A stretch of DNA of 64,000 nucleotides from an uncultured Bacteroidota bacterium (GTDB lineage: Bacteria; Bacteroidota; Bacteroidia; Bacteroidales; VadinHA17). The stretch covers positions 28,110-92,109 of the forward strand of contig CAIMVD010000200.1 in NCBI GenBank assembly GCA_903844815.1. Reading direction: 5' to 3'. A model generated the notes under the pieces. The model was not told the DNA's origin. It did not search any database and was given only the letters and a program-made list of their open reading frames with translations. The position numbers and the translations under genes were made by a program. This document shows, one piece after another, positions 4,720-62,375 of this stretch; the first letter of the stretch is position 1; each line of letters begins with the position of its first letter.

Positions 4720-4819
4720 AAGAACTTACACTGAGAGACACAGAGGAACACAGAGTAACACAGAGTTTTTTAACTCTGTGATCTCTGTGCCACTCCGGAT
4801 TTCCTCTGTGTAAGTTCTT
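4720..4819. repeat. Word-periodic inverted repeat, CACAGAG/CTCTGTG type
   Basis: The left arm aagaacttacac tgagagacac agaggaacac agagtaacac agagtt is followed by a tttt loop. The right arm is aactctgtg atctctgtg cc...cctctgtgtaagttctt. The outer 12 bp (aagaacttacac / gtgtaagttctt) and the inner 9 bp pair perfectly. Confidence 0.85.
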
Positions 4820-4844
4820 AAATACCAATAATTTGAACACTACA

Positions 4845-6830
4845 TTAAAGATTTACCTTAACAGATTCTCCATCACGGATAAGTTTATTCACTATTTTCT
4901 TATTTACCGAATCAGTTACAACAACCCTGATTTTATCTTTTTCACGGCTAATGTTTATGCTGAAGGAAGAATTGAATCCATTGACTTTATTCAGGCTAAT
5001 TTCCGGCCACTCCGACGGAAGCCGGGGAGTTAAGGAGAAGGAACTGAGACCTTCAGGTCGAATCCCGAAAATTCCTTCGGTAATGATACGGCAAAAAAGA
5101 CCGCTCTCGGCTGAAAGATGACGCTGGCTTCCCTCCGGCCAGGCCTCGATTGCATAGGGCACATGTTCACCCAGGAGCCGCTGACCTGCATAGTATGAAA
5201 GATAATTAAGTGCTTTTTCTGTTTCACCTGCGGCAAAAACGCCTCTCAGTGCATACAAAGTTGAACGGTCCCAAAAGGTTTCGCTTCCTGCCTGGGTCAG
5301 AAGCCCATCCTTTGTCCATAATACCGGAGAGAAAAGGGCATCGATTGTCCCCCTGGCTCTTTCTGTAATACCTGTTACAAGCGGCATGCAGATCCACGAC
5401 CTGAGAACTGTATTGCCATCATAATACCTGTAAGTTTCAAAACCATTGATGTTAGCTTCGAAATACCTGTTAATAGCCGTCCTCAGCTTTTCAGCATCTT
5501 TCCTGTATGAAGTAAGCTGTGATCCGTTTTTTCCAAGATCTTTACCCAGAAATGATGCAGACAACAGGGCATCATAATAAAGAGTCGAAGTGCAGAGATT
5601 AGCCTTGCCGGCGGGAAATCGTCCCTCAAGTTCATCTGAGTCGGATGTGACAACACCTTCGTTATTCACTTTCCGTCGGCAATACTCAAGGCACCACTCA
5701 ATAAGAGGCCACAGTTTCTCTGATTCAGTCTTATCGCCCCTTACAAGGGCATACCTGGCAGCACCGTAGGCAATCATGGCAGCATCGCCCCTGTCGCCTG
5801 CCCCGTTCCAGATATCTTTTCCCTCGGCTATAATGGAACTGGGGATTGGCTTATAATCAGCATTCATGAACCTTGCAAAATGCTGATAGGCATTGAAGGA
5901 AGCCTCATTGCCGGTCTTATACCCGAGATAGGGAAAGAAGGGACCCACATATTCAGCCTGGTCGTTCGCCCAAATAGCGGCGTAATACGACTCCCCACCG
6001 GGTCCGTGCATAAGTCCCCCGCTGGTGCGATAAATACTTTCAGAAGCCCTTATCTTTGCAAAGGCGAACATCTTATTAAGGGTTTCATCGGGTGATTCAA
6101 ACACCAGTGAACTCCACATCTGTTTTACAAATGCGCTTCTGGCCGTAAATTCCTTGTCGATATCGGGCGACGCAGTAACCTGATTGCCAGGGTTACCTGA
6201 GATGTAAACATAAAATCTAACTGACTCTCCGGGCTTAAGTTCAAAAACACCGTTATTCTGTATGGCGATTGTAATCGTATAACTTCCTTCCACTCCTTTT
6301 GCGGCGTCGGTTGTGTAAACTGTTTTCTGAACGGGAACTGTAAGGGTTACAGGTCTGCCTGAATTATTCTTTACAGAATATCTTTCGCACAGCATGGGAA
6401 GTGTGGTCGAAGGAAAGATCTCTCTTGTGATCTCAACCGCCACCGGCAATTTATACCCGCTAACAACCGTCAGTATTCCGTTTAGTGATATCGATTCCAC
6501 TTTTTCATTTTGAAGGGTTCCCCCGTTTACCGTGAGAAGAGAGGGTATGTCGATAGCATATTTCTGCATCAGGCTGGCATGGGTATTGTTCGGGATGGTA
6601 CGAAGCATGGGCCACACCATCGAGCGCTCGAGGCTGAAAGAGCCATCGCTTTTTACTCCATACCGCAATACTGTTGAAACCTGTTCTCCGCTCATCTCAA
6701 TATGATCAAAATGTGGAAGATCTTCCTTAACCTCCCATCTGATCGATCCGTCGGTCTGCACTTTCCATCGTGTCTGTCCAGAAAGACAAAACGGAATAAT
6801 TAATAAGCTGACAATTAACAACTTCCTCAT
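4845..6830 (-). CDS. secreted putative six-hairpin (alpha/alpha)6 glycoside hydrolase-like protein, family not recognised
   Basis: Signal peptide MRKLLIVSLLIIPFCLSGQ. The C-terminal two thirds resemble debranching-enzyme or six-hairpin proteins in composition (GGESYYAAIWANDQAEY...). It lies in an operon with GH genes. The family call is weak. Confidence 0.45.
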   Translation of the reverse strand: MRKLLIVSLLIIPFCLSGQTRWKVQTDGSIRWEVKEDLPHFDHIEMSGEQVSTVLRYGVKSDGSFSLERSMVWPMLRTIPNNTHASLMQKYAIDIPSLLTVNGGTLQNEKVESISLNGILTVVSGYKLPVAVEITREIFPSTTLPMLCERYSVKNNSGRPVTLTVPVQKTVYTTDAAKGVEGSYTITIAIQNNGVFELKPGESVRFYVYISGNPGNQVTASPDIDKEFTARSAFVKQMWSSLVFESPDETLNKMFAFAKIRASESIYRTSGGLMHGPGGESYYAAIWANDQAEYVGPFFPYLGYKTGNEASFNAYQHFARFMNADYKPIPSSIIAEGKDIWNGAGDRGDAAMIAYGAARYALVRGDKTESEKLWPLIEWCLEYCRRKVNNEGVVTSDSDELEGRFPAGKANLCTSTLYYDALLSASFLGKDLGKNGSQLTSYRKDAEKLRTAINRYFEANINGFETYRYYDGNTVLRSWICMPLVTGITERARGTIDALFSPVLWTKDGLLTQAGSETFWDRSTLYALRGVFAAGETEKALNYLSYYAGQRLLGEHVPYAIEAWPEGSQRHLSAESGLFCRIITEGIFGIRPEGLSSFSLTPRLPSEWPEISLNKVNGFNSSFSINISREKDKIRVVVTDSVNKKIVNKLIRDGESVKVNL

Positions 6831-6878
6831 ATATTAAATTTTTTAAAGAGTTATAAAGCCTGTAGAAAAAAATTCTTT

Positions 6879-8465
6879 TCATTTCCTGTATTTCAACGCA
6901 CCGATATCAAAGACGGTATCTGTTGAAAGATCTGTTCCGGCGATGTCGGTAGCTCCGGGATCAATATTAATTAACTGTTCAAGATCCAATCCCCTGCCAA
7001 TTAGCGGAGAACCGGATTTCAGACTAAAAGCCATAAGGTCATCCTTATTTAGTTTTACGGTTCCGGAAGGCAAAAATCCTGAAGGATCAACAAGCCTTGG
7101 ATCAGCATAAAAACCGGCCATTCTTCCATCAAGCATTTCATTTGATGTAATGGCTGCCCATTCACCGAGATCCTTAAACCCTGCAATCGATCTGTCGCCT
7201 GAAAGATTAAAGTAACAGTTTCCCTGGAAAAGTTCGGAAACAAGTCTTGCTCCGGGGATCAGGAAGGCCTCTTTGAAAACAAAAATATTGCTGAAGAATC
7301 GGAATCCGGTAGCGTTGTTTTCGATCGTTAAGGAATATCCTCTTTGAGTTGAATTATAAAAGGTATTGTTATAAATATCACAATTACGCATTGTCATTTC
7401 AGGAGAACCGCGCCATATCGCAACGGATCCTCCGTTTAATGATCCGTCATTCAGACTGATACAATATCTTAAAGTATTATTCTCCCATGGTTTCCCGGCG
7501 CCGAATTCAAAGAGCCCGTATCCTCCTCCCTGATTGTTATACGACAAACAGTACTGAATAACCGAATTTGAAACCCCTCCATCAAGATCGAAGCCTCCAC
7601 CGTCCTTTGCCACCGGGTTCGTTTTATTATCGTGCGAAATGCAATACTGTATTTTGAAATCATTACAATCCCAAATCCAGATTCCTACCGGACCATTCCC
7701 GGTCCATTGCATATCCCAGCCATTGTTAAATGATTCACAGTACTCAATTACGCCCCGGTTCACAGATGAGGCAAGTATCCCGCTACCACTGTGATTATTC
7801 AGAACTGTCGGATCGCCCGGATTATTCTCAGTAAGGCAATATCCGATATAAATATCTTCATTGTCAAAATTCAGGGGATCGTACGCTGTGTTACCATCGA
7901 CTAGTATTCCTGCAAATCCGTTATCATGTGAATGTACATTGGTTATCTGAACATCATTGCATTTATAAACATGTAACCCTGAATGCTGAAATCCTGAAAT
8001 TTCGAGTCTGTCAATCCGGAGATGGTCTGAGCCGGCGATAAACACCCCATCGGTAATGTTTCCATCCTTCCTGCCAGCACCTGTTAGCATAAGATCTTCA
8101 ACATTGAAATAATCACAGGCATTTACTTCAATACCAGCTGATAAGCCTCCATCTATGGTTGCCTTTCCGGTACCAAACGATTTTATTGTAACTTCTTTCC
8201 CCTCGGTGCCTGAATCGAGCGAATCGAGCTTAATGGTTCCCGGGAATACAGAACCGCCTTCCAGGAATAAAGTATCACCCGGACTAAGGTCTAAAGTGTT
8301 AACTTTTGTGACAGTCTGCCATGGTTTCTCCTTTGTACCCGGGTTGACATCATTGCCTGAAGCGCTTAAATAGTAGCATCCTACCTGTACTTCCGGAGCA
8401 TTCTTGCAGCAGGTCAGTAAGAAAAAGATTCCAAAACAAATAACTAACAGAGCCTGGTTCTTCAT
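6879..8465 (-). CDS. lipoprotein with right-handed parallel beta-helix (pectate-lyase fold) repeats
   Basis: Lipobox FFLLTCC. Repeated short N/G/D-rich turns are typical of beta-helix coils (NGWDMQW, DGGGFDLDGG, SYNNQGGGYG). Confidence 0.6.
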   Translation of the reverse strand: MKNQALLVICFGIFFLLTCCKNAPEVQVGCYYLSASGNDVNPGTKEKPWQTVTKVNTLDLSPGDTLFLEGGSVFPGTIKLDSLDSGTEGKEVTIKSFGTGKATIDGGLSAGIEVNACDYFNVEDLMLTGAGRKDGNITDGVFIAGSDHLRIDRLEISGFQHSGLHVYKCNDVQITNVHSHDNGFAGILVDGNTAYDPLNFDNEDIYIGYCLTENNPGDPTVLNNHSGSGILASSVNRGVIEYCESFNNGWDMQWTGNGPVGIWIWDCNDFKIQYCISHDNKTNPVAKDGGGFDLDGGVSNSVIQYCLSYNNQGGGYGLFEFGAGKPWENNTLRYCISLNDGSLNGGSVAIWRGSPEMTMRNCDIYNNTFYNSTQRGYSLTIENNATGFRFFSNIFVFKEAFLIPGARLVSELFQGNCYFNLSGDRSIAGFKDLGEWAAITSNEMLDGRMAGFYADPRLVDPSGFLPSGTVKLNKDDLMAFSLKSGSPLIGRGLDLEQLINIDPGATDIAGTDLSTDTVFDIGALKYRK

Positions 8466-8534
8466 AAGAGGAATAGATTTCAGAGTAAAAACCTGAATCC
8501 ATATAGTTCATGCCTTTTCAGGTTTAAATACAAA

Positions 8535-8648
8535 TTAAGAATCTCTGTGGATCTCTGTGTCTTTCCTCTGTGGATCTCTGTTTAACAATATGTTAAGAAC
8601 TTACACAGAGTTACACAGAGAGGCACAGGTTACACAGAGATTCTTAAG
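8535..8648. repeat. Word-periodic inverted repeat, CTCTGTG/CACAGAG type
   Basis: The left arm is ttaagaatctctgtg gatctctgtg tctttcctctgtg gatctctgtttaac. The right arm is ttaagaacttacacagag ttacacagag aggcacaggt tacacagagattcttaag. The outer 15 bp pair perfectly. Confidence 0.85.
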
Positions 8649-8656
8649 TCAAAAAT

Positions 8657-9781
8657 CTATTTAACAGAAAATCTGTAAATGGTTGTCGACTTAAGCGTCT
8701 CACCCGGGTTGATGATTGTGGAAGGGAATTCCGGACGATTCGGACTGTCGGGATAATGATCAGATTCAAGGCACATACCAGCCCTGTAATTAAAAACCTT
8801 TCCGCCATGGCCCGACTTGGTTCCGTCGAGGAAGTTCCCTGTATAGAGCTGCATTCCGGGCTGATCGGTGATAACTTCCAGCATACGGCCACTTACAGGT
8901 TCGTAGACAGTAACATCAACTTCTTCCTTATTATCAAGGATATAATTATGATCATAACCTTTGCCAAGGATGAGCTGATCATAGTTCTCCCCTATTCTTT
9001 CACCAATTTTATGTGGTGTTGTGAAGTCGAACGGGGTACCAGCCACCTGCCTGATCTCTCCTGTTGGTATCATGACAGAATCAACCGGTGTGAAAGCTGA
9101 GGCTTTCAGGGTAAGTTCATGATCGAGGACATCTCCGTTACCTGCACCGTGCAAGTTAAAGTAGGCATGATTTGTAACATTCACGATTGTTTTCTTGTCG
9201 GTAGTCCACTCATAGTTCATCACAATCTCGTTATTGTCGGTCCAGGTATAAGTAACTGATACCTTTACGTTCCCTGGGAAACCCTCTTCCATATCGGGGC
9301 TCAGGTAGCTGAATTTGACCGAAGATGAATCCTTTTCCGCATGTATTTCTGTATCCCAAACAACGCTGTGCCATCCTTTTGGCCCTCCATGAAGAGTATT
9401 GGGCCCATTATTGAGCGGAGTTGTGTACTCAACCCCATCGATTGCGAATTTGCCTTTGGCTATCCTGTTTGCAAAGCGTCCGACAACTGATCCGAATGAC
9501 ATATCGCCATTGACAGTCTCTTCGAAAGTGTCGTAGCCAAAAGTAATGTTGTCCATTTTACCATTTTTATCAGGAACCTCTATCCAGTTGATCTTAGCCC
9601 CGAAATTTGTCAGCCTTATTACATTTCCGGCTTTGTTTCTGAGAGTGATGAGATAAACTTCCTTACCATCGTGAGTTCCGAACAAATCTTTTTTAACCAT
9701 CTGACCGGTTTTTGATGACTGGTTGCAGGACATTGATATTAAAGTAACCAGTGCAAGCGATAACAGGAGGATTTTTTTCAT
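8657..9781 (-). CDS. galM: aldose 1-epimerase (galactose mutarotase), lipoprotein form
   Basis: Mutarotase motifs NTLHGGPKGW and TNHAYFNLHG. Lipobox LISMSC. Confidence 0.9.
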   Translation of the reverse strand: MKKILLLSLALVTLISMSCNQSSKTGQMVKKDLFGTHDGKEVYLITLRNKAGNVIRLTNFGAKINWIEVPDKNGKMDNITFGYDTFEETVNGDMSFGSVVGRFANRIAKGKFAIDGVEYTTPLNNGPNTLHGGPKGWHSVVWDTEIHAEKDSSSVKFSYLSPDMEEGFPGNVKVSVTYTWTDNNEIVMNYEWTTDKKTIVNVTNHAYFNLHGAGNGDVLDHELTLKASAFTPVDSVMIPTGEIRQVAGTPFDFTTPHKIGERIGENYDQLILGKGYDHNYILDNKEEVDVTVYEPVSGRMLEVITDQPGMQLYTGNFLDGTKSGHGGKVFNYRAGMCLESDHYPDSPNRPEFPSTIINPGETLKSTTIYRFSVK

Positions 9782-9886
9782 GGTGCTAATTGATAAATAT
9801 TTGCTAATGTAATAGTTATGTTATTGATCAGGTTTCGTGATAATAAACTGAAATATACAAACTCAGCCGGGTAAAGCATAAATTAA

Positions 9887-11916: not shown

Positions 11917-12020
11917 TTAACCACTGATGCGCAAAGTTAAAGCAGAGAGTGCTGAGGAAAAGTGAAGTTTATCAAAACTCTGCGACCTCAATTCTTTATC
12001 TCTGCGAACTTTGCGGTTAA
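11917..12020. repeat. Word-periodic inverted repeat, GCAGAG/CTCTGCG variant
   Basis: ttaacc...gcgcaaagtt aaagcagagag... on the left faces ...ctctgcgacc...tctctgcgaactttgcggttaa on the right. The TTAACC/GGTTAA ends and AACTTTGC arms are complementary. Confidence 0.7.
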
Positions 12021-12042
12021 TGGATTTCAACTTTCTTATAAT

Positions 12043-15231
<3,189 letters not shown>

Positions 15232-18815: not shown

Positions 18816-18820
18816 AACTA

Positions 18821-20422: not shown

Positions 20423-20479
20423 TTTGTGATCTGCGTATTGTTTTAATGCCACGAAGGCGCGAAGACGCTAAGGATCAAA
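20423..20479. repeat. Short degenerate member of the CCTTCGTG/CACGAAGG repeat type
   Basis: tttgtgatctgcgt... faces ...ccacgaaggcgcgaagacgctaaggatcaaa. It shares the ccacgaagg and ctaagg words with the 424-524 element. Arm pairing is only partial. Confidence 0.4.
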
Positions 20480-20484: not shown

Positions 20485-22155
20485 TTACATACCAAACTCG
20501 ATCAGATTGCCAAGTTTCTTATACTTTTCGAACAGGGCTTCATATTTTTCAGCTCTGACCGGGTCGGGCTGGTATTCCTTTTCAGAACCTCCGCCCATTG
20601 CTGTCTGAGCCGAGGAGATGTCGGGATGTATACCGGCAACCACGGAAGCTGCCATTGCCGAACCAAGTGCACAAGTCTGATCAGAACTTGCCACCCTGAT
20701 TGGCATATTGAGAACGTCGGCAACTATCTGCATCACGAATGGATTCTTTTTCGCAACCCCTCCGATAGCAATAACTTCGTCGATACGTACTCCTTCGGAA
20801 ACAAACCTTTCATTAATCATTTTCGATCCGAATGCCGTTGCTTCAACAAGGGCCCTGAAGATCCTCGGAGCATCCGATCCGAGAGAGAGACCGGTGATTA
20901 ATCCTTTAAGATTCTGATTGGCATCGGGTGTGCGCCTTCCATTCATCCAGTCGAGGGCGAGTATTGAAGTTTCTTCAACAGGGATGGACTCTGCCTGTTT
21001 GCTTAATTCCGCAATCATCCGGCCCGAAGCTTCCTCAGCTATCCTCGTTCTGGATGATTCGTCCAGCCAGGTCATTTCACCAATAAGGTTAGTTACAGGC
21101 CACATAAGCAGGTTGCTGAACCATGCGTAAATATCGCCGAATGCCGATTGTCCGGCTTCAAGACCAACCATACCCGGAACTATCGACCCGTCGACCTGAC
21201 CACAAATACCGGCAACAAGCCTGTCGCCAAACTCTTCGGCAGGTATTATAATCATGTCGCATGTTGAAGTTCCCATGACCTTTACGAGGTGGTATGGTTT
21301 GATCTCACCGCCCACTGCTCCAAGATGAGCATCGAACGATCCTGCTCCGACCTTAACGTCAGTTGTCAATCCGAGTTTTGCTGCCCATTCGGGTGAGAGG
21401 TTCCCTGCGACAACATCGCAGGTATAAGTTTCTTTATATAAACGCTCCCTTAAACCCGAGAGCAGGGGATCAAGCATTGATAGGAATTCCTCATCGGGAA
21501 GGCCATTAAAATCTTCGTGCCACATAGCCTTATGACCGGCTGCACACCGGCTTCTTTTAAGCTGAAGCGGATCTGTGTTACCTGTAAGAAGTGCCGGTAT
21601 CCAGTCACAATGCTCTACCCAGGAGAAGGCATTCTTCCTCACCTCTTCACTGTTGCGAAGAACATGCAACACCTTGGCCCAGAACCATTCCGATGAGTAA
21701 ATACCGCCTTCATATTTGGTAAAGTCGGTGCCTCCCCATTTTCCTGAGAGCTCATTTATCTCCGAAGCCTCTTTCACGCCTGTATGGTCTTTCCACAGTA
21801 CGAACATTGCATCAGGATTTTCTGCAAATTCAGGCTTTAACGACAGGGGTACTCCTTCGCTGTCAACAGCAACAGGAGTTGATCCGGTGGTGTCGACCGA
21901 GATTCCTGCAATATTTTTTACTGTTTCATCTGATAAACCTGCAAGAGCCTCTTTTACTGAATGTTCCAGCCCTTCTACATAGTCGAGGGGGTGCTGCCTG
22001 AAACGGTTTCCCGAAGGATCGCAGTAGAGACCCTTTTTCCATCGCGGATATTCAAATACCGATGAGCCAACAATATTACCAGTTGAAGCATTTGCAACAA
22101 CCGACCGGACCGAATCGGTTCCGTAATCAATCCCAATAACATATTTATCAGCCAT
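20485..22155 (-). CDS. araB: ribulokinase
   Basis: FGGY kinase N-terminus YVIGIDYGTDSVR. Length 556 aa. Adjacent to araD and araA. Confidence 0.9.
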   Translation of the reverse strand: MADKYVIGIDYGTDSVRSVVANASTGNIVGSSVFEYPRWKKGLYCDPSGNRFRQHPLDYVEGLEHSVKEALAGLSDETVKNIAGISVDTTGSTPVAVDSEGVPLSLKPEFAENPDAMFVLWKDHTGVKEASEINELSGKWGGTDFTKYEGGIYSSEWFWAKVLHVLRNSEEVRKNAFSWVEHCDWIPALLTGNTDPLQLKRSRCAAGHKAMWHEDFNGLPDEEFLSMLDPLLSGLRERLYKETYTCDVVAGNLSPEWAAKLGLTTDVKVGAGSFDAHLGAVGGEIKPYHLVKVMGTSTCDMIIIPAEEFGDRLVAGICGQVDGSIVPGMVGLEAGQSAFGDIYAWFSNLLMWPVTNLIGEMTWLDESSRTRIAEEASGRMIAELSKQAESIPVEETSILALDWMNGRRTPDANQNLKGLITGLSLGSDAPRIFRALVEATAFGSKMINERFVSEGVRIDEVIAIGGVAKKNPFVMQIVADVLNMPIRVASSDQTCALGSAMAASVVAGIHPDISSAQTAMGGGSEKEYQPDPVRAEKYEALFEKYKKLGNLIEFGM

Positions 22156-22954: not shown

Positions 22955-22990
22955 TTTAGACACTTTAGACACTCCAGACACTTTAGGCAC
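22955..22990. repeat. Tandem 9-bp direct repeat array (TTTAGACAC x4, two variants)
   Basis: The array reads tttagacac|tttagacac|tccagacac|tttaggcac. It ends 1 bp from the stop codon of the Nudix regulator gene. I found no inverted partner arm. Confidence 0.75.
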
Positions 22991-22991
22991 T

Positions 22992-23693
22992 TCAATTAAC
23001 CTCCAGATTAAAATAAAACCCATCCTCCTTAAGATGCTCAATTCTGTCTTTATTAAACCTGTAATAGAATGCCCCTTTCTTTGACGTAACTGTCTCTTTC
23101 TCATCGAGTTTTTCGAGAATTCCCATTGATAATATTTTCTTCCTGAAATTTCTCCTGTCGATCTGCCTTTGATAAATAGCTTCATAAAGATCCTGAAGAT
23201 GTACCAGGGTGAATTTTTCAGGAAGCAGCTCAAAACCGACCGGAGCTATTTTAACCTCAGCCTGTAAGTCAGCAAGGGCTTTTTTCACCATTTCGGCGTG
23301 GTCGAATATAAGTTCGGGAAGCCTGTTAAGTGACCTCCAGTTAACGCCAGTATTTTCAACAATTTCAGGGTCGATATCCCTAATCGAGATCAGTGCCCAG
23401 TAGGCAATTGAAATTACTCTATCGCCTGGATCCCTGCCAGTATCGCCATAGCAGTATGACTGCTTCATGTAAATTGATTCGAGACCTGTAAGTTTCCGCA
23501 GGATTCTTGATGCAGCAGCCCCGAGGCTCTCATCTTCTTCCACAAATCCTCCTGTGAGAGACCATTGCCCTTTTGCCGGCTCAATTATTCTTTTGAACAG
23601 CAAAAGTTTGATCTCCTTCTCAAGCAGATCATAACCGAAAATTACACAGTCAACCGCAACAAGATGCCTGGCCCGATCGTGATATGATTTCAT
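22992..23693 (-). CDS. Nudix-domain transcriptional regulator (NrtR family, Bacteroides AraR-like)
   Basis: Degenerate Nudix box GGFVEEDESLGAAASRILRKLTG followed by a C-terminal winged-helix-like half. The gene is embedded between araA and araD, as described for Bacteroides AraR. Confidence 0.75.
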   Translation of the reverse strand: MKSYHDRARHLVAVDCVIFGYDLLEKEIKLLLFKRIIEPAKGQWSLTGGFVEEDESLGAAASRILRKLTGLESIYMKQSYCYGDTGRDPGDRVISIAYWALISIRDIDPEIVENTGVNWRSLNRLPELIFDHAEMVKKALADLQAEVKIAPVGFELLPEKFTLVHLQDLYEAIYQRQIDRRNFRKKILSMGILEKLDEKETVTSKKGAFYYRFNKDRIEHLKEDGFYFNLEVN

Positions 23694-28140: not shown

Positions 28141-28185
28141 ACCTTCATGCCCTTTGTAATACCTTCGAGTCCTTTGTGTTTAATA
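28141..28185. repeat. Half-copy (left arm only) of the CCTTTGTG-type element
   Basis: accttcatg|ccctttgta|ataccttcgag|tcctttgtg|tttaa aligns unit for unit with the left arm at 424-467 (one indel, few substitutions). No right arm follows. It ends 14 nt before the ATG at 28199. Confidence 0.7.
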
Positions 28186-28198: not shown

Positions 28199-29269
28199 AT
28201 GAAGAATCCACTTTTATTTTTTTGCCTGATAGTGGCAATAAATCTTTCGGCATACGCCTCTGAACCCTTTAAAGGAGAAAAATGCATTGTAAAATCTGAA
28301 TTCATTTACAATAAGGAAGATGTACCATTTCCAAGCTGCCATGCATCGACTATAATTGAAAAACATGATGGTCTTATTGCCGCCTGGTTCGGAGGCACCG
28401 AAGAGAAGGATCCTGATGTCGGAATCTGGACAAGCCATTATTCCGATGGCAAATGGACGAAACCTGCTGAGGTAGCAAACGGCATCCAGCACAAATCGAA
28501 AAGATACCCTTGCTGGAACCCTGTCCTTTATAACGCTGGTAATGAAATACTTTTGTTTTACAAGACAGGACCCTCTCCGTCAACATGGTGGGGAGAACTA
28601 ATCAGATCGTCTGATGAGGGAAAAACATGGTCACGTTCATCCCGCCTGCCGGAAGATATTTATGGTCCGGTCAAGAATAAGCCAATTCTTCTTAAAAACA
28701 ATATATTGCTATGCCCGTCGAGCACGGAAGATCAGGGTTGGAGGGTTCACATGGAGTTCACTTCCGACAATGGCAGTACATGGGAACGTACACCTGCACT
28801 TAATGACAGGAAAACAGGAGTTATCCAGCCGACCATACTTCAACTTCCGAACGGAAGATTGCAGATGCTTTGCAGGAGCACTACCTCATACATAATGAAC
28901 TCATATTCTGACGATAACGGGCATACATGGACTGAACTCACATCGTCCGGAGTGCCAAACCCAAATTCAGGTATTGACGCAGTGACGCTTAAGGACGGAC
29001 GTCATCTTTTAATATATAATCATATCTCAAAGGGCAGGAATGTGCTGAATGTTGCTGTTTCGGGCGACGGAGTTGAATGGAAAGCCGCGGCACTTCCCGA
29101 GAATGAGCCAAAGGGAGGTGAATTTTCATATCCTGCCATTATCCAGACAAGTGACGGACTGGTTCACATAACCTATACCTGGAACAGGAAACTCATAAAA
29201 CACTTAATTATCGACCCGAACAGCATTGAGGCTAAACCATTTATTAATGGCGGCTGGCCTGAAAAATGA
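28199..29269 (+). CDS. secreted BNR/Asp-box beta-propeller, sialidase (GH33)-like
   Basis: Three Asp-box motifs (SSDEGKTWS, TSDNGSTWE, SDDNGHTWT). Signal peptide present. Confidence 0.7.
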   Translation: MKNPLLFFCLIVAINLSAYASEPFKGEKCIVKSEFIYNKEDVPFPSCHASTIIEKHDGLIAAWFGGTEEKDPDVGIWTSHYSDGKWTKPAEVANGIQHKSKRYPCWNPVLYNAGNEILLFYKTGPSPSTWWGELIRSSDEGKTWSRSSRLPEDIYGPVKNKPILLKNNILLCPSSTEDQGWRVHMEFTSDNGSTWERTPALNDRKTGVIQPTILQLPNGRLQMLCRSTTSYIMNSYSDDNGHTWTELTSSGVPNPNSGIDAVTLKDGRHLLIYNHISKGRNVLNVAVSGDGVEWKAAALPENEPKGGEFSYPAIIQTSDGLVHITYTWNRKLIKHLIIDPNSIEAKPFINGGWPEK

Positions 29270-33992: not shown

Positions 33993-34083
33993 TTGTTACA
34001 CAGAGGTCCACTGAGGACCAAAGAGTTACACTGAGTTTGTTACCTCCGTGTAACTCTTTAAACTCTGTGCAACTCCGTGTTAA
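33993..34083. repeat. Word-periodic inverted repeat, CACAGAG/CACTGAG type
   Basis: ttgttacacagagg tccactgagg accaaagagttacactgag is followed by a tttg loop and then ttacctccgtgtaactcttt aaactctgtg caactccgtgttaa. The inner stem agagttacac/gtgtaactct is perfect. It ends 13 nt before the next ATG. Confidence 0.8.
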
Positions 34084-38041: not shown

Positions 38042-38160
38042 CTAGTTACAATTAAAATATGTGACAAATATAAGTTCCTTTTATTGAATCGCCATAATAT
38101 CACCTGAATCTTTTTACTATCACTCAATTTTTCTTATCTTTGCGTAATATTAATCTTTTG

Positions 38161-38592
38161 ATGAGCGCAATTTTCAATAAAGAATTAAGTCCTGAACAAC
38201 TCGATGTGTTATTTCGAAATGATGAGAAATGCCTTGAGTTCCTGGCTCAATTGAAGTGGGACGAAGGTTTTGTTTGCAGGAAATGTGGGAATACCAACCA
38301 CTGCCCCGGAAAAGCACCTCATTCGAGGCGTTGTACCAAGTGCAAATCTGAAGAATCAGCTACGGCAGGTACTATTTTTCACAATTGCAAGTTCCCTGTT
38401 AGCAAGGCATTCTACATAGCCTATACTGTTTGCAAGGGCAATGAAGATGTTTCCTCCTATGAATTTGCAAGGCGACTAACGCTGCGACAGATGACTTGCT
38501 GGAATTTCAAAACAAGGATTCAGAACGCCCTGCAGCAAATGGATTCGCTTACCAAGACAGAGAAGTCCTCAATCCAGAAAATACTATCCTGA
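38161..38592 (+). CDS. IS1595-type transposase N-terminal zinc-ribbon domain only (no DDE domain)
   Basis: CLEFLAQLKWDEGFVCRKCGNTNHC...RRCTKCKSEESATAGTIFHNCKFP matches the IS1595 zinc-ribbon domain. The ORF ends after about 144 aa, and only 62 bp remain before the next gene. The start is set to the ATG at 38161 rather than the TTG at 38140. Confidence 0.6.
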   Translation: MSAIFNKELSPEQLDVLFRNDEKCLEFLAQLKWDEGFVCRKCGNTNHCPGKAPHSRRCTKCKSEESATAGTIFHNCKFPVSKAFYIAYTVCKGNEDVSSYEFARRLTLRQMTCWNFKTRIQNALQQMDSLTKTEKSSIQKILS

Positions 38593-38618
38593 TTTTAAAT
38601 CCATAGTGGCCATTGCGA

Positions 38619-38643
38619 TCCCGATAGTTATCGGGACCTTTTT
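38619..38643 (+). terminator. Intrinsic terminator-like hairpin plus T-run
   Basis: tcccgat agtt atcggga forms a 7-bp stem. It is followed by cc and ttttt (38639-43). It lies between convergent gene ends. Confidence 0.55.
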
Positions 38644-38654
38644 GGCCATTATGT

Positions 38655-52759: not shown

Positions 52760-52815
52760 TCACTGAGTTGCACAAAATTTCGGGCGGGGAACACAGAGTT
52801 TTACTGTTCATTACT
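52760..52815. repeat. Degenerate CACAGAG/CACTGAG-type element
   Basis: gatcactgagttgcacaaaa...ggaacacagagtttt then ...cttcagtggttc. It has the family words, but the arms are poorly complementary. Confidence 0.35.
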
Positions 52816-55956: not shown

Positions 55957-56625
55957 TTATGATGCAAGCTGTTTCAGGTAATTAACTGCTCCCTGAGGAT
56001 CGGGCGAATAAAAATCGGCACCTATTTTCTGGCAATAATCCATTGTTACGGGTGCTCCCCCGACAAGTATTTTAAGGTCAGAATGTTTTTCCCTAATTGC
56101 CGCAACAGTTTTCTTCATATTCTCCATTGTAGTGGTCAGGAGAGCCGACAAGCCTATTACTGATCCCGGATGCTCATCAATAGCCTTCAGGAATTTTTCG
56201 GTTCCTACATCGACACCAAGATCGATGACTTCCCAGCCTCCACCCTCAATCATCATTGCAACAAGGTTCTTACCTATATCATGAAGATCGCCGGAAACCG
56301 TTCCGATAATAAATTTACCCTTTCTCTTTGTCTCTCCCGACTGAAAAAAAGGTTTGATATGCACCATTGCACTGTTCATTGCCTTGGCTGCCATAAGCAT
56401 CTGGGGGACATAAATCTCTTTTCTGCTGAATTTCCCTCCTACGATGGCCATGGCCGGAATAAGGGCATTTTCGAGGATCTCGTCAGGTTTAATCCCCGAC
56501 TCAAGAGCTTTTCGGGCCAGTTCATCTGCTCCATCCTGGTCCTTCATGTTGGGAGGATAGGGTGATATTTTATTGATCTTTCCGAATTCAACACAAAGTG
56601 CGAGTTTTTCAAGAATGTCGCTCAT
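55957..56625 (-). CDS. corrinoid (B12)-binding protein with N-terminal cap helix bundle
   Basis: DxHxxG motif GDLHDIGKNLV, plus SALLTTT and GGAPV. The start is set to the ATG at 56625 (MSDILEKL). Confidence 0.85.
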   Translation of the reverse strand: MSDILEKLALCVEFGKINKISPYPPNMKDQDGADELARKALESGIKPDEILENALIPAMAIVGGKFSRKEIYVPQMLMAAKAMNSAMVHIKPFFQSGETKRKGKFIIGTVSGDLHDIGKNLVAMMIEGGGWEVIDLGVDVGTEKFLKAIDEHPGSVIGLSALLTTTMENMKKTVAAIREKHSDLKILVGGAPVTMDYCQKIGADFYSPDPQGAVNYLKQLAS

Positions 56626-56669
56626 ATTATTTTTTTTGAAAGTTTTATAAAACAATCCATGATTCATCC

Positions 56670-56677
56670 CAAAGATA
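56670..56677 (-). promoter_or_regulatory. Candidate -7 box TATCTTTG for the corrinoid operon
   Basis: TAnnTTTG match on the minus strand, 45 nt upstream of the ATG. No clear -33 element. Confidence 0.3.
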
Positions 56678-56709
56678 TAATTAAGTAAATAAAATTCATA
56701 TTTCCGACT

Positions 56710-56738
56710 GACGATTTAAATAAAAGATTTAAATCATC
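56710..56738. promoter_or_regulatory. AT-rich palindrome GACGATTTAAAT-N5-ATTTAAATCATC in the divergent promoter region
   Basis: 12-bp arms with one mismatch. It lies 33-61 bp upstream of the candidate -7 box. Confidence 0.3.
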
Positions 56739-56889
56739 TGCTTTGATTAACGTTTTTTAGAACTTCACCTTAAACTATTTAAGGCAAATTGCATATCTTT
56801 AATCTCAAATTTGAAGGTGGAGACCAGCGACCACAATAAAAACGGGGCAGTCCGAAAAGCCATAAGATCAGGTCAAAACTAAAAAAGAT

Positions 56890-57279
56890 ATGTATTGCAG
56901 AAATTGTGGAAACGAAGTATATGAAAAAGCAGTGATGTGTGTGGCCTGCGGCACACCTCCTAAAGCAGGTGATAAATATTGCTATCACTGTAAGTCCGAA
57001 ACTCCTCCAAATGCATCCGTTTGCATGAAATGCGGAGTAAGTTTGAGTCATAACTACCACTATAGCACTGAAGGTGAAGACTGGCTAACTGCTTTACTAC
57101 TCTGCTTTTTCCTTGGGATATTCGGTGTACACCGGTTTTATACAGGCCACACCGGTATTGGAGTGGTTCAGCTCCTAACACTTGGCGGATGTGGTATCTG
57201 GGCTTTAATCGATTTCATTTTAATAATCGTAGGAAGTTACAGAGATGCAAATGGCCGATTACTTGTCAGGAGATTTTAG
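56890..57279 (+). CDS. double zinc-ribbon + TM2-domain membrane protein
   Basis: CRNCGN...CVACG and CYHCK...CMKCG ribbons. TM2 motif [14 protein letters not shown]. Confidence 0.8.
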
Positions 57280-57589
57280 ACTTTTAAAATATCTGAAGTT
57301 TAGCCTTATTGCCATTTTCCCTTTAATCCTTTGGTTATTACCACCAGAATGGATAAGTGAGCAGCATTCAATTTGCCTTTATAAAAATATCACAGGTCAT
57401 GAGTGCTGGGGCTGCGGAACCACAAGGGCGATAATTTCGGCAATTCATTTTCGCTTCAGTGATGCCATTCTTTTCAACAAGTCAGTAATAATCGTTCTTC
57501 CCGTGTTGGCATTTATCTGGGCAAAAACACTTTTTACGGCTTTTAAAGAAATTATGACTCCCGTTTTGAAAAATCCTGACAGTAAATAA
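57245..57589 (+). CDS. DUF2752-family membrane protein
   Basis: [19 protein letters not shown] motif. It overlaps the TM2 gene by 35 nt, and the start is uncertain. Confidence 0.6.
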
Positions 57590-57615
57590 TAACCAGTAAT
57601 AACAATTATCTCCCC

Positions 57616-59142
57616 ATGAAAAAATCATTAGTTATCCTTTTTTTCCTGATAGTAAACACTGCATTTGCTCAGATGCCTTTAACCGGTATTTTCCAGGGAG
57701 GTTCCGATGTTGGAAATCCTAAAATTAAGGGATCCTCGGTATACAATAAAACTGATCAGAGCTATAATCTTAAAGGCGGTGGATATAATATCTGGTTTGC
57801 GAGGGATGAATTTCATTATCTGCCCAAAAAATTAAAAGGAAACTTCATCCTCACCGCAAATTTTGCATTTGAGGGAAAGGGAACCGAAGCTCACAGGAAA
57901 ACAGGATGGATGATAAGGGAGACACTGGAGGAAACTTCAACCCATGTGTCTGCAACGCTTCACGGTGATGGTCTTACAGTTATGCAATGGAGAGGTGAAA
58001 AAGGCGCAGCTATGCGTGACCCTCAGGATGAGATCTTTGCCCCCGATTCCGGATATAGTGTAATTCAGCTTGAGAGAATTGGCAAAAAAGTTATAATGAG
58101 GGCTGCAAAACAGGGTAAACCCTTCGATGTTATAGGAACACAGGAAATGCAGAATTTGCCCGATGAGATTTTTGCCGGACTATTTGTATGCTCCCACAAT
58201 CCTGATGTAACCGAGCAGGTCAAAGTATGGAACGTGAGAATTGACCAGCCAGTTGCCGATGATTATAATCCCGGAAAATCAGGTTGGGTTGGCTGCAGAA
58301 TGGAAATCATCAATGTTGCTGATGGCAAGAGGAAGGTAATTTATGAAAAGAACGGCAGATTCGAAGCTCCTAACTGGATGCCCGACGGCAAAAGACTTTT
58401 GTTTAACATGGATGGCCTGTTATACAAAATTCCTGTTGGAGGCGGAGAGATTGAAAACATCAGCACAGGAACCGTTAAAAACTGCAATAACGATCATGGC
58501 ATCTCATTCGACGGAAAACTTCTGGCAATAAGCAGTTCGGGAGAAGGAACAATTGGCAAACAGTCTGCTGTATGGGTGCTTCCCCTGACAGGAGGCCAGC
58601 CTAAGCTTATCACTGAAAACACACCTTCTTACTGGCACGGATGGGCTCCCAACAATAAAGAGGTTGTCTATGTAGCAATGAGAAATGGCAAAAAAGTATA
58701 CAACATTTACCGGAATTCAATCGAAGGCAATAAAGAGGAAGCCCTCACCGACATCAAGGATGGAGAACATGTTGACGGATGCGAGTACTCACCCGACGGG
58801 CAATACATCTATTACAATGGCAATCATACAGGAACTATGCAAATATGGAGAATCAAACCGGATGGTTCGGGAAGGGAGCAGCTTACCTTCGACAAGTATA
58901 ATAACTGGTTCCCTCATATATCACCCGACGGAAAATGGATGGTAATAATTTCCTTTCCCCCTGAGATAGAACCCAACAGCCATCCATCCTATAAGAGGGT
59001 AATGCTCAGAATCCTGCCTGTATCGGGCGGTGAGCCAAATACCATCGCTTATCTCTATGGCGGACAGGGTACGATCAACGTGCCATCATGGTCGCCCGAC
59101 AGTAAAAAGATTGCTTTTGTAAGCAATTCCGGGAAAGAATAA
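57616..59142 (+). CDS. secreted TolB-like beta-propeller (PD40 repeats) protein with N-terminal jelly-roll-like domain
   Basis: Repeated W/Y-x-PDG blades (WMPDGKRLLF, YSPDGQYIYY, ISPDGKWMVI, WSPDSKKIAF). Signal peptide present. Confidence 0.65.
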   Translation: MKKSLVILFFLIVNTAFAQMPLTGIFQGGSDVGNPKIKGSSVYNKTDQSYNLKGGGYNIWFARDEFHYLPKKLKGNFILTANFAFEGKGTEAHRKTGWMIRETLEETSTHVSATLHGDGLTVMQWRGEKGAAMRDPQDEIFAPDSGYSVIQLERIGKKVIMRAAKQGKPFDVIGTQEMQNLPDEIFAGLFVCSHNPDVTEQVKVWNVRIDQPVADDYNPGKSGWVGCRMEIINVADGKRKVIYEKNGRFEAPNWMPDGKRLLFNMDGLLYKIPVGGGEIENISTGTVKNCNNDHGISFDGKLLAISSSGEGTIGKQSAVWVLPLTGGQPKLITENTPSYWHGWAPNNKEVVYVAMRNGKKVYNIYRNSIEGNKEEALTDIKDGEHVDGCEYSPDGQYIYYNGNHTGTMQIWRIKPDGSGREQLTFDKYNNWFPHISPDGKWMVIISFPPEIEPNSHPSYKRVMLRILPVSGGEPNTIAYLYGGQGTINVPSWSPDSKKIAFVSNSGKE

Positions 59143-59160
59143 TAAACCTGGCAATTATAA

Positions 59161-59266
59161 GGTCCTCTGTGGAACTCTGTGTCACCTCTGTAGACCTCTG
59201 TGTAACAATTAGTAAAGAAGTTTCACAGAGAGACACGGAGATGCCACAGAGTTACACTGAGACATC
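59161..59266. repeat. Word-periodic inverted repeat, CTCTGTG/CACAGAG type, between convergent gene ends
   Basis: The left arm is ggtcctctgtg gaactctgtg tcacctctgta gacctctgtgtaac. After the loop, the right arm is tttcacagag agacacggag atgccacagag ttacactgagacatc. Confidence 0.8.
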
Positions 59267-59336
59267 TGAAGGAATAGTTTCAGGCTTCCTGACAGATACT
59301 AAATTGTTGATACACAGCAATAATAGCAGTACGTAA

Positions 59337-61233
59337 TCAATTCAGAACATACTTTTTCACAGTGATCTCTCCGAAAACAGGGGTAACGAAAGGTTTACCA
59401 TTCTTAATCCCTGCATTTCCGAATCCTGTGGCCGTTGAGATAAATGCCGTAAAATCGCCCTGATGTGAATTAACAATAAGCTCCTGGCTTACTGCATCAT
59501 ATCTCAATCCAGTCATTCCCTGGATCATTCCGTAGCCCGACATCGCCCTTGCGTACCAGTGACCGCATTCATATTCGTCAAAGGGATTCCTGATTTTACC
59601 ATCGTACCTGTTGCGGCATGCCCTAACGATTTCAAGAGCTTTTTCATTCTCGCCCATGAACATAAGGTGAGAGGCGACCTGGTATTCAATTCCGGTCCAG
59701 ACTTCGTTGCTGTATACGAACGGGAGCGAAAGCATCCCGCCCTTTGGCCAGGTACACAGAAGCAACCCTCCCTCTGAGCCCAGTGCATATGACGGCCGCT
59801 GCATGGAAAGTATTAGCAACAGGACGGATCGGCAGTGCCGATCTGAAGGTCTGATGTCCGTTAGTATCCTGACTATGAAAATATTCCGTTTCCCTCAGGG
59901 TACGTTCGAGTGATGGGAAAAGATGTGGTATTGCCTGAGCATAATTCCAGACATGCTGGCACGAACCAGCACAGCATCCCCATGAATCGCCGCAGCCTTC
60001 CCAGCTCCACAGCCGTCCGTCGGGCTGTCGAAGCACTGTCGGAGATTTGAGTATGGAAAGGTTTGCTGAAATTGCCTCAACAACCTCAGGAGGCAGGGTT
60101 GTATTAAAAAATGAATCCCTGAAGAGCGATGACTTTGCATTCAGATCGTTATAGTTTGTCTTCCAGTATGATGCAACCTCTTCAATACTGCTTAATTTCT
60201 TTGAATACCAGGGTTTATAAAAGGGATCCTTGCATGAACAGGCAGGGTCGGTGCATTCCTCGTCCTTCTTGTTTTTCGGTTCTTCTCCGTATCTGAGGTC
60301 CGAATCGGGAACATACCATGACATCATAAGCCTGATTACCCTTGTCGCGCCGGGTTCAAGAGTAAACGGAACATATAATGAGGCTCCGGGAGCATCCTTT
60401 TCAACGGGATCAGTATTCCTTGATTCGCCTTTCATTATTGTCTCCCATGTTATAGTAAGAGGGTCCCACCATCCTCCCCTGAACCAGCAGTGATCGACAA
60501 CGGTTGACGGCTCGCTTGTGAAAAAGGCGAAATCGCCTTTGGTTTCAGGCTTATCCTTAACGCCATCTTCTGTAAGAATAAACCCGTTTGAGATGGCCCT
60601 GATCCTGTTCTTTCCACCCCGCTGCTGCATAAAATTCCTTGAATTATATGAAAAGACAGCGTCAATCTTTGAGGAGCTTCTGTTTGTAAAAGTATACTCA
60701 ACAGCTCCGACCGGCAGGCTTGAATTATCAGCATCAGTCGGGACAAAGGGGCTCCATCCCGAAAGGGTTACATCGACCGGAATAGCCTCATCATGTAATT
60801 CTATAGTAGCATATGGAAATCGGGCTGTGAATTTTGCATCATTGAAACGAGGAAAACCATAGGTAGTGCTTTCCGACCCATTTGCCGATCCTGGCTTTCC
60901 AAATTTTTTCCAGTCGGGAACCTTTCCTTCGAGTATCCTTGTTCCGTTTTCGACACCTTTTACCGAAAGAGCAGCGAACATGCATGGTTCATTAAAGACG
61001 TCGGGCTTATTGCGCACCGACATATGAGAAATGCTTCCGGTCCCGTCGAGACAAAACATCCCGGCGCCTATTCCTCCGATAGGGAATGCAATACGGTCGA
61101 GGTTTTTCCCTGTATATGAGCCGTTGTAAAGATGCCCTTTTTCATCAGTTCCACTATTTTTAACTGAACATGATGAAGATACAACACAAAGAATAAAACC
61201 AATAACCAATTTATTACAAAGTCGATTATTCAT
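59337..61233 (-). pseudogene. GH116 (GBA2-type beta-glucosidase) remnant: frameshift plus apparent internal deletion
   Basis: The N-terminal ORF (59686-61233) carries a lipobox and GSCQHVWNYAQ...FHAAA. The C-terminal ORF (59337-59819) carries LPFVYSNEVWTGIEY and RNPFDEYECGHWYARAMS in another frame. The two frames meet near 59790. The roughly 200-250 aa that normally separate these motifs are missing. Confidence 0.6.
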
Positions 61234-61298
61234 TTTTTTGATTCTAATTAAAGGACACTAAGAGTCAAATAATTAATAAAAAATTATTTACCCGTTCA

Positions 61299-62195
61299 TT
61301 AACTTCCCTGTATTGTCACAAGCCTTGTACAAAGGTCCTTTAATCCTTCAGGGCTGTCGCCGCCGGGTTGTTCAATGGTGGTCCAGCCTTCATATCCAAT
61401 ATCATCAAGCGCTTTCATTACCTTAGTCCAGTTTACATCACCTTCGAGAAGTTTTACATCAAATCCTGCTCCTCTACCCTGTTTATCGGCGATTTTTTTG
61501 CTGAACTCTTTTATATGGACTTTAGCCAGCCTCCTGCCGAGAATTCTGATCCACTGTTCAGGCCAGCCGTATACGAGTATGTTGCCACAATCGAAATAAA
61601 AACCAACATAAACACTTCTGAACTGATCTACATATGAAGCTGCCTCCATGGGGCTCAAGAGGAAATTGTTCCAGACGTTTTCGAGTGCAATCTTCACTTT
61701 CAGGTCGGTTGCCATTGGAATAACTTTTTTTATCTCCTCCGAGGCCCGTGTCCAGCACTCGCTGTAAGTGACCGTATCCGAAACTATTCCCGGTACAAGC
61801 AATACGGTATCGGCGCCATAAGCTGCCGCATCCTGGAGAGAAACCCTTAGTGAAGCGACGCCCTGTTCCCTGACGGCAGGATCGGGATCTGAGAGAGGAT
61901 ATTTCCAATGGTTTTCACCGCACACGCTGGGGATAATCAAACCCGTTGCATCACGTGCCTTTAAAACTTCAGTCCTGTCGAGATGGCTCATCACCTCAAC
62001 TCCGTCGAATCCGGCAGTCTTTGCAGCCACAAATTTTTCCATTATTGTCTGTCCTGTCTCGATGCATCCCCACATGACACCTTTTTTAAGGTTTCGTGTT
62101 GCAGGGGCTGACAGCTTTGAAAAGTCAGGTAACGATGACACCGAAACTGCGGCCGATGCAAGAAGGGTATTTTTGGCAAATTGTCTTCTGTTCAT
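61299..62195 (-). CDS. xylose-isomerase-like TIM-barrel (sugar phosphate isomerase/epimerase family) protein with twin-arginine signal
   Basis: TAT motif NRRQFAKNTLLASAAV. AP-endonuclease-2/TIM patterns ALENVWNNF and FDCGN. Confidence 0.7.
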   Translation of the reverse strand: MNRRQFAKNTLLASAAVSVSSLPDFSKLSAPATRNLKKGVMWGCIETGQTIMEKFVAAKTAGFDGVEVMSHLDRTEVLKARDATGLIIPSVCGENHWKYPLSDPDPAVREQGVASLRVSLQDAAAYGADTVLLVPGIVSDTVTYSECWTRASEEIKKVIPMATDLKVKIALENVWNNFLLSPMEAASYVDQFRSVYVGFYFDCGNILVYGWPEQWIRILGRRLAKVHIKEFSKKIADKQGRGAGFDVKLLEGDVNWTKVMKALDDIGYEGWTTIEQPGGDSPEGLKDLCTRLVTIQGS

Positions 62196-62279
62196 TTTAC
62201 TATTTTGAATTATGTTTACTGAATATCAATTTGTAGAAATTTCAAGCTGAATCAACTAATTCGTTCTAAAATTAAAATC

Positions 62280-62375
62280 AACTCTGTGTTCTCAGTGACT
62301 TCTTTGTATAACTCTGCAAATGGTTTTAAGAACTTACACAGAGGGACACAGAGGTAACACAGAGGACACAGAGGG
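62280..62375. repeat. Word-periodic repeat, CACAGAG type, weakly complementary arms
   Basis: The left arm is aactctgtg ttctcagtg acttctttgtataactctgcaaa. The right arm is ttaagaacttacacagag ggacacagag gtaacacagag gacacagaggg. It shares the 18-mer ttaagaacttacacagag with 8593-8610. Confidence 0.75.

Follow-up and report, generated by a model that had tools for sequence, protein, structure and literature searches.

In this work we describe a family of repeated elements found in a 64-kb stretch of DNA from an uncultured Bacteroidota bacterium (Bacteroidales, VadinHA17; contig CAIMVD010000200.1, positions 28,110–92,109; the whole stretch is called the window hereafter), together with arrays of the same words that occur in tailed phages and in genomes of many phyla. 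The window elements are imperfect palindromes of 90–115 bp made of two inverted modules, in which heptamers of the CACAGAG type are repeated at short intervals, and they occupy gaps that follow stop codons. The interpretation that we put forward, and to which we give about an even chance of being correct, is that they represent a proliferating non-coding repeat, comparable to the repetitive extragenic palindromic (REP) sequences and their hairpin-forming doublets (REPINs), which lodges in post-stop gaps and forms RNA hairpins between cistrons or at 3' ends. The individual copies are listed in Table 1.

The word CACAGAG or its complement CTCTGTG is present 25 times in the window (both strands), compared with 5.33 +/- 2.64 times in dinucleotide-preserving shuffles, none of 100 of which reached 25. 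All but one of these matches (24 of 25) fall inside five clusters, at 4729–4810, 8543–8639, 33999–34079, 59165–59261 and 62282–62373, each of which combines a run of CACNGAG words with a run of CTCNGTG words, and the words of the window all conform to C-R-C-N-R-A-G. The purine arm comes first in elements A and C and the pyrimidine arm in elements B, D and E, which makes two orientation types. The predicted RNA folding energy of these five elements ranges from −35 to −55 kcal/mol, and none of 200 shuffles folded as well (z-scores of −7.7, −6.3, −5.5, −3.8 and −3.9 for A to E, respectively). The first-pass annotation of this DNA had reported five clear copies and named folding as a check; the sequences match at all six coordinates given, word enrichment, clustering and fold z-scores agree, and A–E far exceed their shuffles. 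A sixth, 'degenerate' copy that it placed at 52760–52815 holds two words and folds no better than 23 of 200 shuffles (z = −1.2), and is therefore not significant. Two palindromes (424–520 and 11917–12033) and three single arrays with sibling words had been missed. Strings shared between copies had been taken as an argument for common descent: they are exact, TTAAGAACTTACACAGAG at 8593–8610 and 62326–62343, and AAGAACTTACAC at 4720–4731 with its complement at 4808–4819, but AAGAACTTA is weak evidence of recent descent, as a similar extended head, AAGAACTTCAC, flanks arrays of a planctomycete (L034). Element B is identical across its length in an independent metagenome contig (L001).

Genomes and viral contigs were scanned with an exact pattern of three spaced CACAGAG words, and the statistics given below rest on the matches listed. 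At least 120 genome loci and at least 120 viral-contig loci match this pattern. The genomes listed belong to more than ten phyla, including Planctomycetota, Acidobacteriota, Chloroflexota, Bacteroidota, Verrucomicrobiota, Cyanobacteria and Gemmatimonadota, and also comprise Beta-, Gamma- and Deltaproteobacteria and two records labelled archaeal; several of them are isolates or complete chromosomes. BLAST detects arrays in cultured Bacteroides finegoldii, B. ovatus, Gemmatirosa kalamazoonensis, Anabaena and Nostoc, and none in 5,426 Escherichia coli genomes. Raw counts were discarded as a test of specificity, because two permuted control words of equal composition give 104 and 95 viral loci compared with at least 120 for the real word: 9-bp tandem repeats of any heptamer are common and mostly encode tripeptide repeats. 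The inverted-partner statistic alone is discriminating. A partner within 250 bp was found for 83 of 156 CACAGAG arrays in genomes (53%) and 25 of 157 in viral contigs (16%), and for 44 of 166 arrays of the sibling word CGCAGAG, compared with 1 of 109 and 0 of 104 for the two permuted words. An independent chance origin is excluded by the bias in word, head and spacer that phyla share, together with control words that lack pairs. Two Bacteroides copies with the same loop (L447 and L448) were considered as a case of dispersal and rejected, as their flanks are similar and they most likely represent one locus in two strains.

In the sets of 172–363 arrays compared, the unit is a polar module: a 5-nt head, TTNRC, is followed by three or four heptamer words, C-R-C-N-R-A-G, of which CACAGAG is the commonest, separated by purine-rich spacers of 2–4 nt (GA, AA or AG), and A-rich sequence follows the last word of the purine arm. 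The head takes the form TT[A/C][A/G]C, and TTCAC, TTAAC and TTAGC, present in 54, 37 and 21 of 363 arrays, are each 13–18 times enriched; arrays of CGCAGAG are headed by TTCAA and TTCAC, and heads in the window are often (AAGAAC)TTA. A head specific for stop codons (TAA, TAG or TGA at −4 to −2) was considered and abandoned, TGG not being significantly depleted (5 observed vs 6.8 expected). Both within arrays and among lineages, word periods of 8 to 11 nt are observed, and outside the window 305 of 392 intervals have a period of 9 nt. The period of 9–11 nt initially noted is true of the window copies, and its likeness to one helical turn holds locally (10–11 nt in the window) but not elsewhere; as the 10–11-nt period is a local variant, helical phasing is not a conserved property. 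Arrays are arranged in pairs with heads out (57) or heads in (13), with loops of 13–224 nt, or are single (67), and the head is the usual limit of the inverted symmetry. In the partner arm, which is the unseeded one, words are 91% complementary and spacers 48%, shuffled partners giving about 38%, so that the stems consist of 7-bp helices split by largely unpaired spacers. Judged from this complementarity, the words are constrained beyond what the stability of a plain hairpin explains.

Intergenic DNA represents 7.6% of the window, in which genes include many glycoside hydrolases and a SusC/SusD pair, and all 11 arrays are intergenic; given this share, the probability for the seven palindromes all to be intergenic is about 1.5e-8. 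A stop codon is found 0–27 nt away in 10 of the 11 arrays, in agreement with the proposal that copies lie just 3' of stop codons, and in six of the seven co-directional copies the distance to the upstream stop (0–27 nt) is shorter than that to the downstream start (26–152 nt). Of two elements in B. finegoldii, one directly follows a TAG stop, and both are free of overlap with annotated genes. In phage L543, a heads-out palindrome is present at about 7 of 10 gene boundaries, beginning right after one stop and ending a few nucleotides before the Shine–Dalgarno (SD) sequence of the next gene, and in L157, L177 and L205, which are bona fide tailed phages, arrays are also located at gene boundaries. 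Arrays might instead act on the gene downstream, as a 5' leader or translation-initiation signal in which the purine words would provide an unstructured or SD-like landing pad for ribosomes, on the model of the TAACTGA heptamer repeats of Beggiatoaceae. Certain phage arrays indeed abut a start codon (CACAGAG-ATG in L175 and L186, CACAGAGaaagATG in L157), those of L128 are just upstream of SD-ATG, and a primer used for cloning in B. fragilis sits on an array, CAC-CACAGAG-AA-CACAGAG, with which the region cloned upstream of BF2782 ends on its 3' side (PMC3090145). This explanation fits the data poorly and we regard it as unlikely, given the proximity of the window copies to the upstream stop, the several copies that lie between convergent genes and have no downstream start, and the phage L469, in which mRNA carries the pyrimidine strand and not the purine strand. 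The limited use of SD pairing by Bacteroidota also weighs against it. Single arrays elsewhere have the purine strand in the mRNA in 40 cases and the opposite orientation in 21, a weak sense bias of about 2:1 beyond which ORF-based context statistics at GC-rich loci are too noisy for use; orientation is uniform inside some phages and opposite between them, arrays being mostly sense in L157 and all antisense in L469.

The strong hairpin potential found right after stop codons could also denote intrinsic terminators that evolved independently, with words produced by local slippage and no family at all. Canonical hairpin-plus-T-run terminators are not enriched in the window (13 vs 11.3 expected, and 8 vs 13.4 expected), hence something else may do the job. 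However, the terminator role first envisaged is not supported in its canonical form (a G+C-rich, short-looped hairpin with a U-tract behind it), as no T-run follows the stems and a terminator scan of the window calls none of the elements, and the tail of the purine arm enters A-rich sequence rather than a U-tract. An independent origin is made very improbable by the word, head and spacer bias common to many phyla, by the control words without pairs and by the existence of single arrays, and this reading also fits the data poorly. Small hairpins with T-runs were observed at 8485–8530 (−), near element B, and at 38600–38650 (for example AAACCTGAA...TTCAGGTTTTT and GATCCCGATA...TATCGGGACCTTTTT), convergent genes flanking 38593–38654 at the latter site, which indicates that the genome also has conventional terminator-like structures.

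Turnover of the elements is fast among relatives, and near-identical copies amplify inside one replicon. The presence/absence comparison suggested in the first-pass annotation could be made for element C, and the gap in which it lies differs among relatives. Aminotransferase and SDR genes are separated by 130 bp in the window, with element C; the element is missing at the orthologous gap in L122, L123, L124, L125 and L445, element-free gaps of 8, 9 or 48 bp are found in relatives with an 88–92% identical aminotransferase, and an unrelated GC hairpin fills the gap in two other relatives. In L444, a 95% relative, element C is half-decayed, the right arm being kept with reshuffled words and the left arm decayed. 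Amplification is observed in the tailed phage L469, which carries nine near-identical arrays, (CTCTGCGtt)3-GTTAAT, in 13 kb and in one orientation; the related phage L596 (62% portal identity) has 1 array in 22 kb. One of the L469 arrays is read in frame in the variable linker of a portal-MuF protein. It was not counted as a demonstrated insertion, as the linker of the closest homologue is equally long.

Position, turnover, amplification and architecture are observed; what we infer is a REP/REPIN-like mode of propagation, in which copies would spread by copy-and-paste without target duplication, possibly via single-stranded DNA or hairpins, driven by a trans-acting factor that would read the head and the words. 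Copies would then be co-transcribed with the upstream gene and fold into long interrupted hairpins, made of 7-bp helices with unpaired spacers, which may serve as intercistronic or 3'-end punctuation, acting as a 3' exonuclease barrier, a processing site, a weak terminator or a cistron insulator. The similarities with REPs, bacterial interspersed mosaic elements (BIMEs) and REPINs are several: all are short, abundant and extragenic, mostly between convergent or co-directional genes; they occur as singles or as inverted dimers in both arrangements, with a short tag at one end; they lack target duplications, vary among close relatives, and could form hairpins as RNA or as single-stranded DNA. 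REPs themselves are described between unidirectional and convergent genes, as head-to-head and tail-to-tail dimers with a conserved end tag (PMC3733652). The REP/BIME-like nature first proposed is therefore retained for dispersal, hairpin formation, intergenic location and variability among relatives, but not for the unit, as a REP unit is a 20–40-bp palindrome tagged GTAG or CGTC whereas here it is a direct heptamer array tagged TTNRC, palindromic only in pairs.

Several observations weigh against the REP/REPIN-like interpretation. Because the arm is a direct tandem array and the tag is neither GTAG nor CGTC, strict membership of the REP class fails. REP sequences are normally lineage-specific whereas CACAGAG-type words are common to many phyla, an indication of some conserved reader or constraint for which the model has no name. 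Outside the window, roughly one array in two is single (67, vs 70 paired) and cannot form a hairpin. Folding on the transcribed strand is no better than on the antisense strand, which gives the better fold for three of the five co-directional elements. Finally, a linked gene was sought among 2,141 ORFs lying around 120 loci, and their clustering recovered nothing other than common families and the structural genes of related phages; similarly, 142 long-range array pairs (0.3–4 kb) enclose no gene family beyond those of related phages. A sense-strand G-U asymmetry was also sought as a sign of RNA-level selection, and no bias was detected. In a further difference from REPs, no RAYT (REP-associated tyrosine transposase) gene was seen among the scanned window proteins, none of 20 of which is a Y1 transposase, or recurrently near the 120 loci.

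The main rival to this interpretation is that a conserved sequence-specific protein, acting on DNA or single-stranded RNA, recognizes the arrays as tandem sites, which would be their primary role, with one protomer per heptamer; the palindrome would then be secondary, reflecting for example two opposed filaments or the bidirectional form of a polar signal. We consider this possible, with clear reservations. It would account for the much higher complementarity of words than of spacers described above, for identical heptamers and heads in more than ten phyla and their phages, for the frequency of single arrays, for the presence of one head in front of different words within one phage, and for the lack of a fold advantage of the sense strand. 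Footprints of about 7 nt or spacings of 9–10 nt suggest, speculatively, cold-shock-domain proteins (Csp), ribosomal protein S1 and Rho, through its primary sites, as candidates for the reader. Nevertheless, a rigid oligomer on duplex DNA fits uneasily with a period ranging between 8 and 11 nt, no candidate gene adjoins the arrays, the transcription-orientation bias is weak and differs between phages, and the 5,426 genomes of E. coli, which has Csp, S1 and Rho, are devoid of arrays. Phased protein-binding arrays had been mentioned as an alternative in the first description of the window, a suggestion that gains support from words that are conserved where spacers are not. The protein-site explanation is compatible with the REP/REPIN-like one, because the mobilizing enzyme would itself be such a reader.

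Two types of known arrays can be compared with those described here. TAACTGA repeats, known from Beggiatoaceae, Cyanobacteria and Bacteroidetes, form contiguous, nearly always direct arrays of period 7, with one inverted set among 170 (PMC4679880); they are mostly just upstream of start codons, and RNA-binding proteins, S1, Csp and CsrA, were suggested as their readers (PMC4679880; MacGregor, 2015). Like these and the short tandemly repeated repetitive (STRR) sequences of cyanobacteria, CACAGAG-type arrays are intergenic tandem repeats of a specific heptamer, common to distant phyla without an evident transfer mechanism, and the non-use of related heptamers in STRR/TAACTGA repeats is a further likeness noted for them; they differ in having spaced words (period 9–11), a head, frequent inverted pairs and a location just after stops. 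Plasmid Rep iterons, the parC sites of ParR and the heptads of omega proteins are also short tandem sites, direct or inverted, with a period of 7–11 bp and one protomer each, but such iterons and centromeres occur once per replicon beside a rep or par gene, whereas there are about 7–11 copies per 64 kb here and no linked gene.

A derivation from classical DDE transposons, as MITEs (miniature inverted-repeat transposable elements), would make the arms terminal inverted repeats with multiple transposase-binding sites. Heads-out pairs with variable interiors of 13–224 bp do resemble terminal inverted repeats around a variable core, and presence/absence polymorphism is observed. The unit of BrickBuilt, a repeat of Porphyromonas gingivalis, is about 22–23 bp. 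With bacterial MITEs, such as Correia elements and BrickBuilt (PMC4596501), the arrays share the properties of small non-autonomous repeats with inverted ends, and BrickBuilt also has internal tandem repeats, but in the present elements it is the arms that consist of tandem repeats, and not an internal minisatellite. In 79 elements, direct duplications of 3–6 bp, sought at offsets of 0–11, show no excess over shuffled flanks, and no transposase was found near arrays or between long-range pairs, nor a parent insertion sequence among the enclosed genes; in the classical sense, the MITE-like nature also proposed at first has thus to be given up. Furthermore, head-out and head-in pairs both occur, single arms are frequent, and identical words in more than ten phyla are unexpected for one insertion-sequence lineage. 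The MITE reading fits the data poorly and, in our opinion, has hardly any chance of being correct.

The REP of malEFG and the RNase III sites of phage T7 are known examples of intercistronic stabilizing or processing stem-loops, to which operons with selective RNA processing and stabilization can be added (PMC4423207, PMC8219983). RNase III cleaves RNA stems of at least about 20 bp in vivo, and the stems predicted here have 29–43 pairs. The long hairpins between cistrons or after stops resemble such structures, in particular in L543, where the hairpins are immediately 5' of ribosome-binding sites. The known examples differ in having neither stems of repeated words nor sequence conservation across phyla, and the function proposed here is deduced from position only.

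The first-pass annotation was aware of no description of this word-periodic architecture, and our searches were likewise blank. In Rfam 15, no family reaches its gathering threshold for the elements of the window, for five loci of other phyla or for B. finegoldii, the matches being to generic long-hairpin (miRNA-precursor) models only, far below threshold; full-text searches of the open-access literature by sequence string or concept returned no description, although one may exist elsewhere, and their sole hit was the B. fragilis primer mentioned above. Resemblances to DnaA boxes, parS half-sites, CIRCE, Chi, MraZ boxes, T7 class II terminators, sigma-70, sigma-54 and ECF promoters and IS608 cleavage tetranucleotides were dropped, as the sequences do not support them. 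It can be tentatively proposed, with no more confidence than for the protein-site reading, that head-tagged arrays, TTNRC-(C-R-C-A-G-A-G-NN)n, constitute an unrecognized class of gene-boundary elements, widespread in phyla and tailed phages, with a conserved host factor that recognizes the words and not the hairpin, and which may spread arrays, punctuate transcripts, or both. If such a conserved reader exists, the arrays would reveal a shared, unnamed layer of gene-boundary control or genome parasitism, spanning Bacteroidota, Acidobacteriota, Planctomycetota, Chloroflexota, Proteobacteria, Cyanobacteria and their phages; if they are merely another REP-like selfish repeat, their value is moderate and mainly descriptive. 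Culturable human-gut Bacteroides carry elements (B. finegoldii, B. ovatus and B. fragilis), which makes genetics and 3'-end sequencing feasible. As recurrent long palindromes at gene ends, the arrays can break assemblies (L119) and extend or interrupt ORF calls, and they may serve as insulators between genes.

Table 1. Palindromes and arrays of the window, in order of position.
Feature	Position	Orientation	Arms and words	Context
Sibling element Z	424–520	TTAAC/TTAAA heads to loop	Arms CCCTTTGTG/CCCTTCGTG..., then CACGAAGG/CACTAAGGG; words CCCTTYGTG/CACNAAGGG; arms 44 nt, 86% complementary; dG −58 to −61 kcal/mol	Between convergent genes, 10 and 17 nt from their stops
Element A	4720–4819	Heads out, tails to loop	Purine arm AAGAACTTA-CACTGAG/CACAGAG x3 (4720–4765); 8-nt loop; pyrimidine arm of CTCTGTG words (4774–4819); dG −54.9 kcal/mol	25 nt past stop of gene 4845–6830(−)
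Element B	8535–8648	Heads to loop	CTCTGTG arm 8535–8585; loop with TTAAGAACTTA head; CACAGAG arm 8604–8648	8 nt past stop of aldose epimerase gene 8657–9781(−)
Sibling element F	11917–12033	TTAAC heads out	Words CGCAAAG/CGCAGAG and CTCTGCG/CTTTGCG; dG −36 kcal/mol	9 nt past stop of GH2 gene 12043–15213(−)
Single array	20450–20472	+	CACGAAG-g-CGCGAAG-a-CGCTAAG	12 nt from stop of gene 20485–22155(−)
Single array, membership uncertain	22955–22991	+	Four 10-nt units GACACTTTA(N)	Abuts stop of gene 22992–23693(−)
Weak single array, membership uncertain	~28148–28178	−	CCCTTTGT..CCTTCGAG..CTTTGTG	Divergent intergenic gap, 13–20 nt upstream of gene 28199–29269(+)
Element C	33993–34083	Heads out	CACAGAG, CACTGAG, CAAAGAG, CACTGAG, then CTCCGTG, CTCTTTA, CTCTGTG, CTCCGTG	Between aminotransferase gene (stop 33965) and SDR gene (start 34096)
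Possible relic	52760–52815		Two words; at best a decayed relic, fold z −1.2	Between convergent genes
Element D	59161–59266	Heads to loop		Between convergent genes; 18 nt past stop 59142(+), 70 nt past stop 59337(−)
Element E	62280–62375	Heads to loop	Left arm partly decayed; right arm TTAAGAACTTA-CACAGAG x4	19 nt past stop of gene 62395–63825(−)

Some loci outside the window have a more complex organization. In a Chitinophaga metagenome-assembled genome (L119, 700–1151), CACAGAG and CTCTGTG arrays alternate in a higher-order tandem of about 110 bp, inside which the contig ends; its loops, about 40 nt long, are variable, unlike the conserved linker between heads, gctcgattttcagc. Phage L205 carries more than 20 CACAGAG/CTCTGTG words at 2069–2500 and 4558–4720, in direct and inverted blocks of about 150–400 bp that are iteron-like and directly follow the terminase and portal genes. 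In phage L469 (11330–11440 and 12990–13050), a small GC hairpin, ccccgaagactttcgggg, is inserted within a word of one array, and a different word, CAATCCGTG, repeated three times, ends in a GTTAA head, as CTCTGCG arrays do. Other tandem words stand beside the CACAGAG arrays of phages L177 (1460–1600 and 10800–10900) and L157 (11800–13200), namely contiguous ATCCAGT/ATCCAGC and AATAACG heptamers, which are STRR-like, and CGATTT(G/A).

Three other features of the window were noticed. The GH116 glycosidase gene at 59337–61233 (−), convergent with the gene on the other side of element D, is seemingly split, ORF 59686–61233 encoding the N-terminal domain and the overlapping ORF 59337–59819 only the last catalytic quarter, which suggests a pseudogene, through frameshift or deletion, or else an error of sequencing. 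At 56812–56878 (+), 12 nt upstream of ORF 56890–57279, a DUF805 RNA motif (Rfam RF03081) is present with 59.4 bits, the gathering score being 51.1; the ORF encodes a TM2-domain and zinc-ribbon protein and not a DUF805 protein. Finally, the 150-amino-acid protein encoded at 38140–38592 (+) comprises little beyond the zinc-ribbon domain of IS1595 transposases; it could be a domesticated DNA-binding fragment, and it is kept in the 95% relative L444 (8970–9401), lying between OsmC and XylA2-like genes in both.

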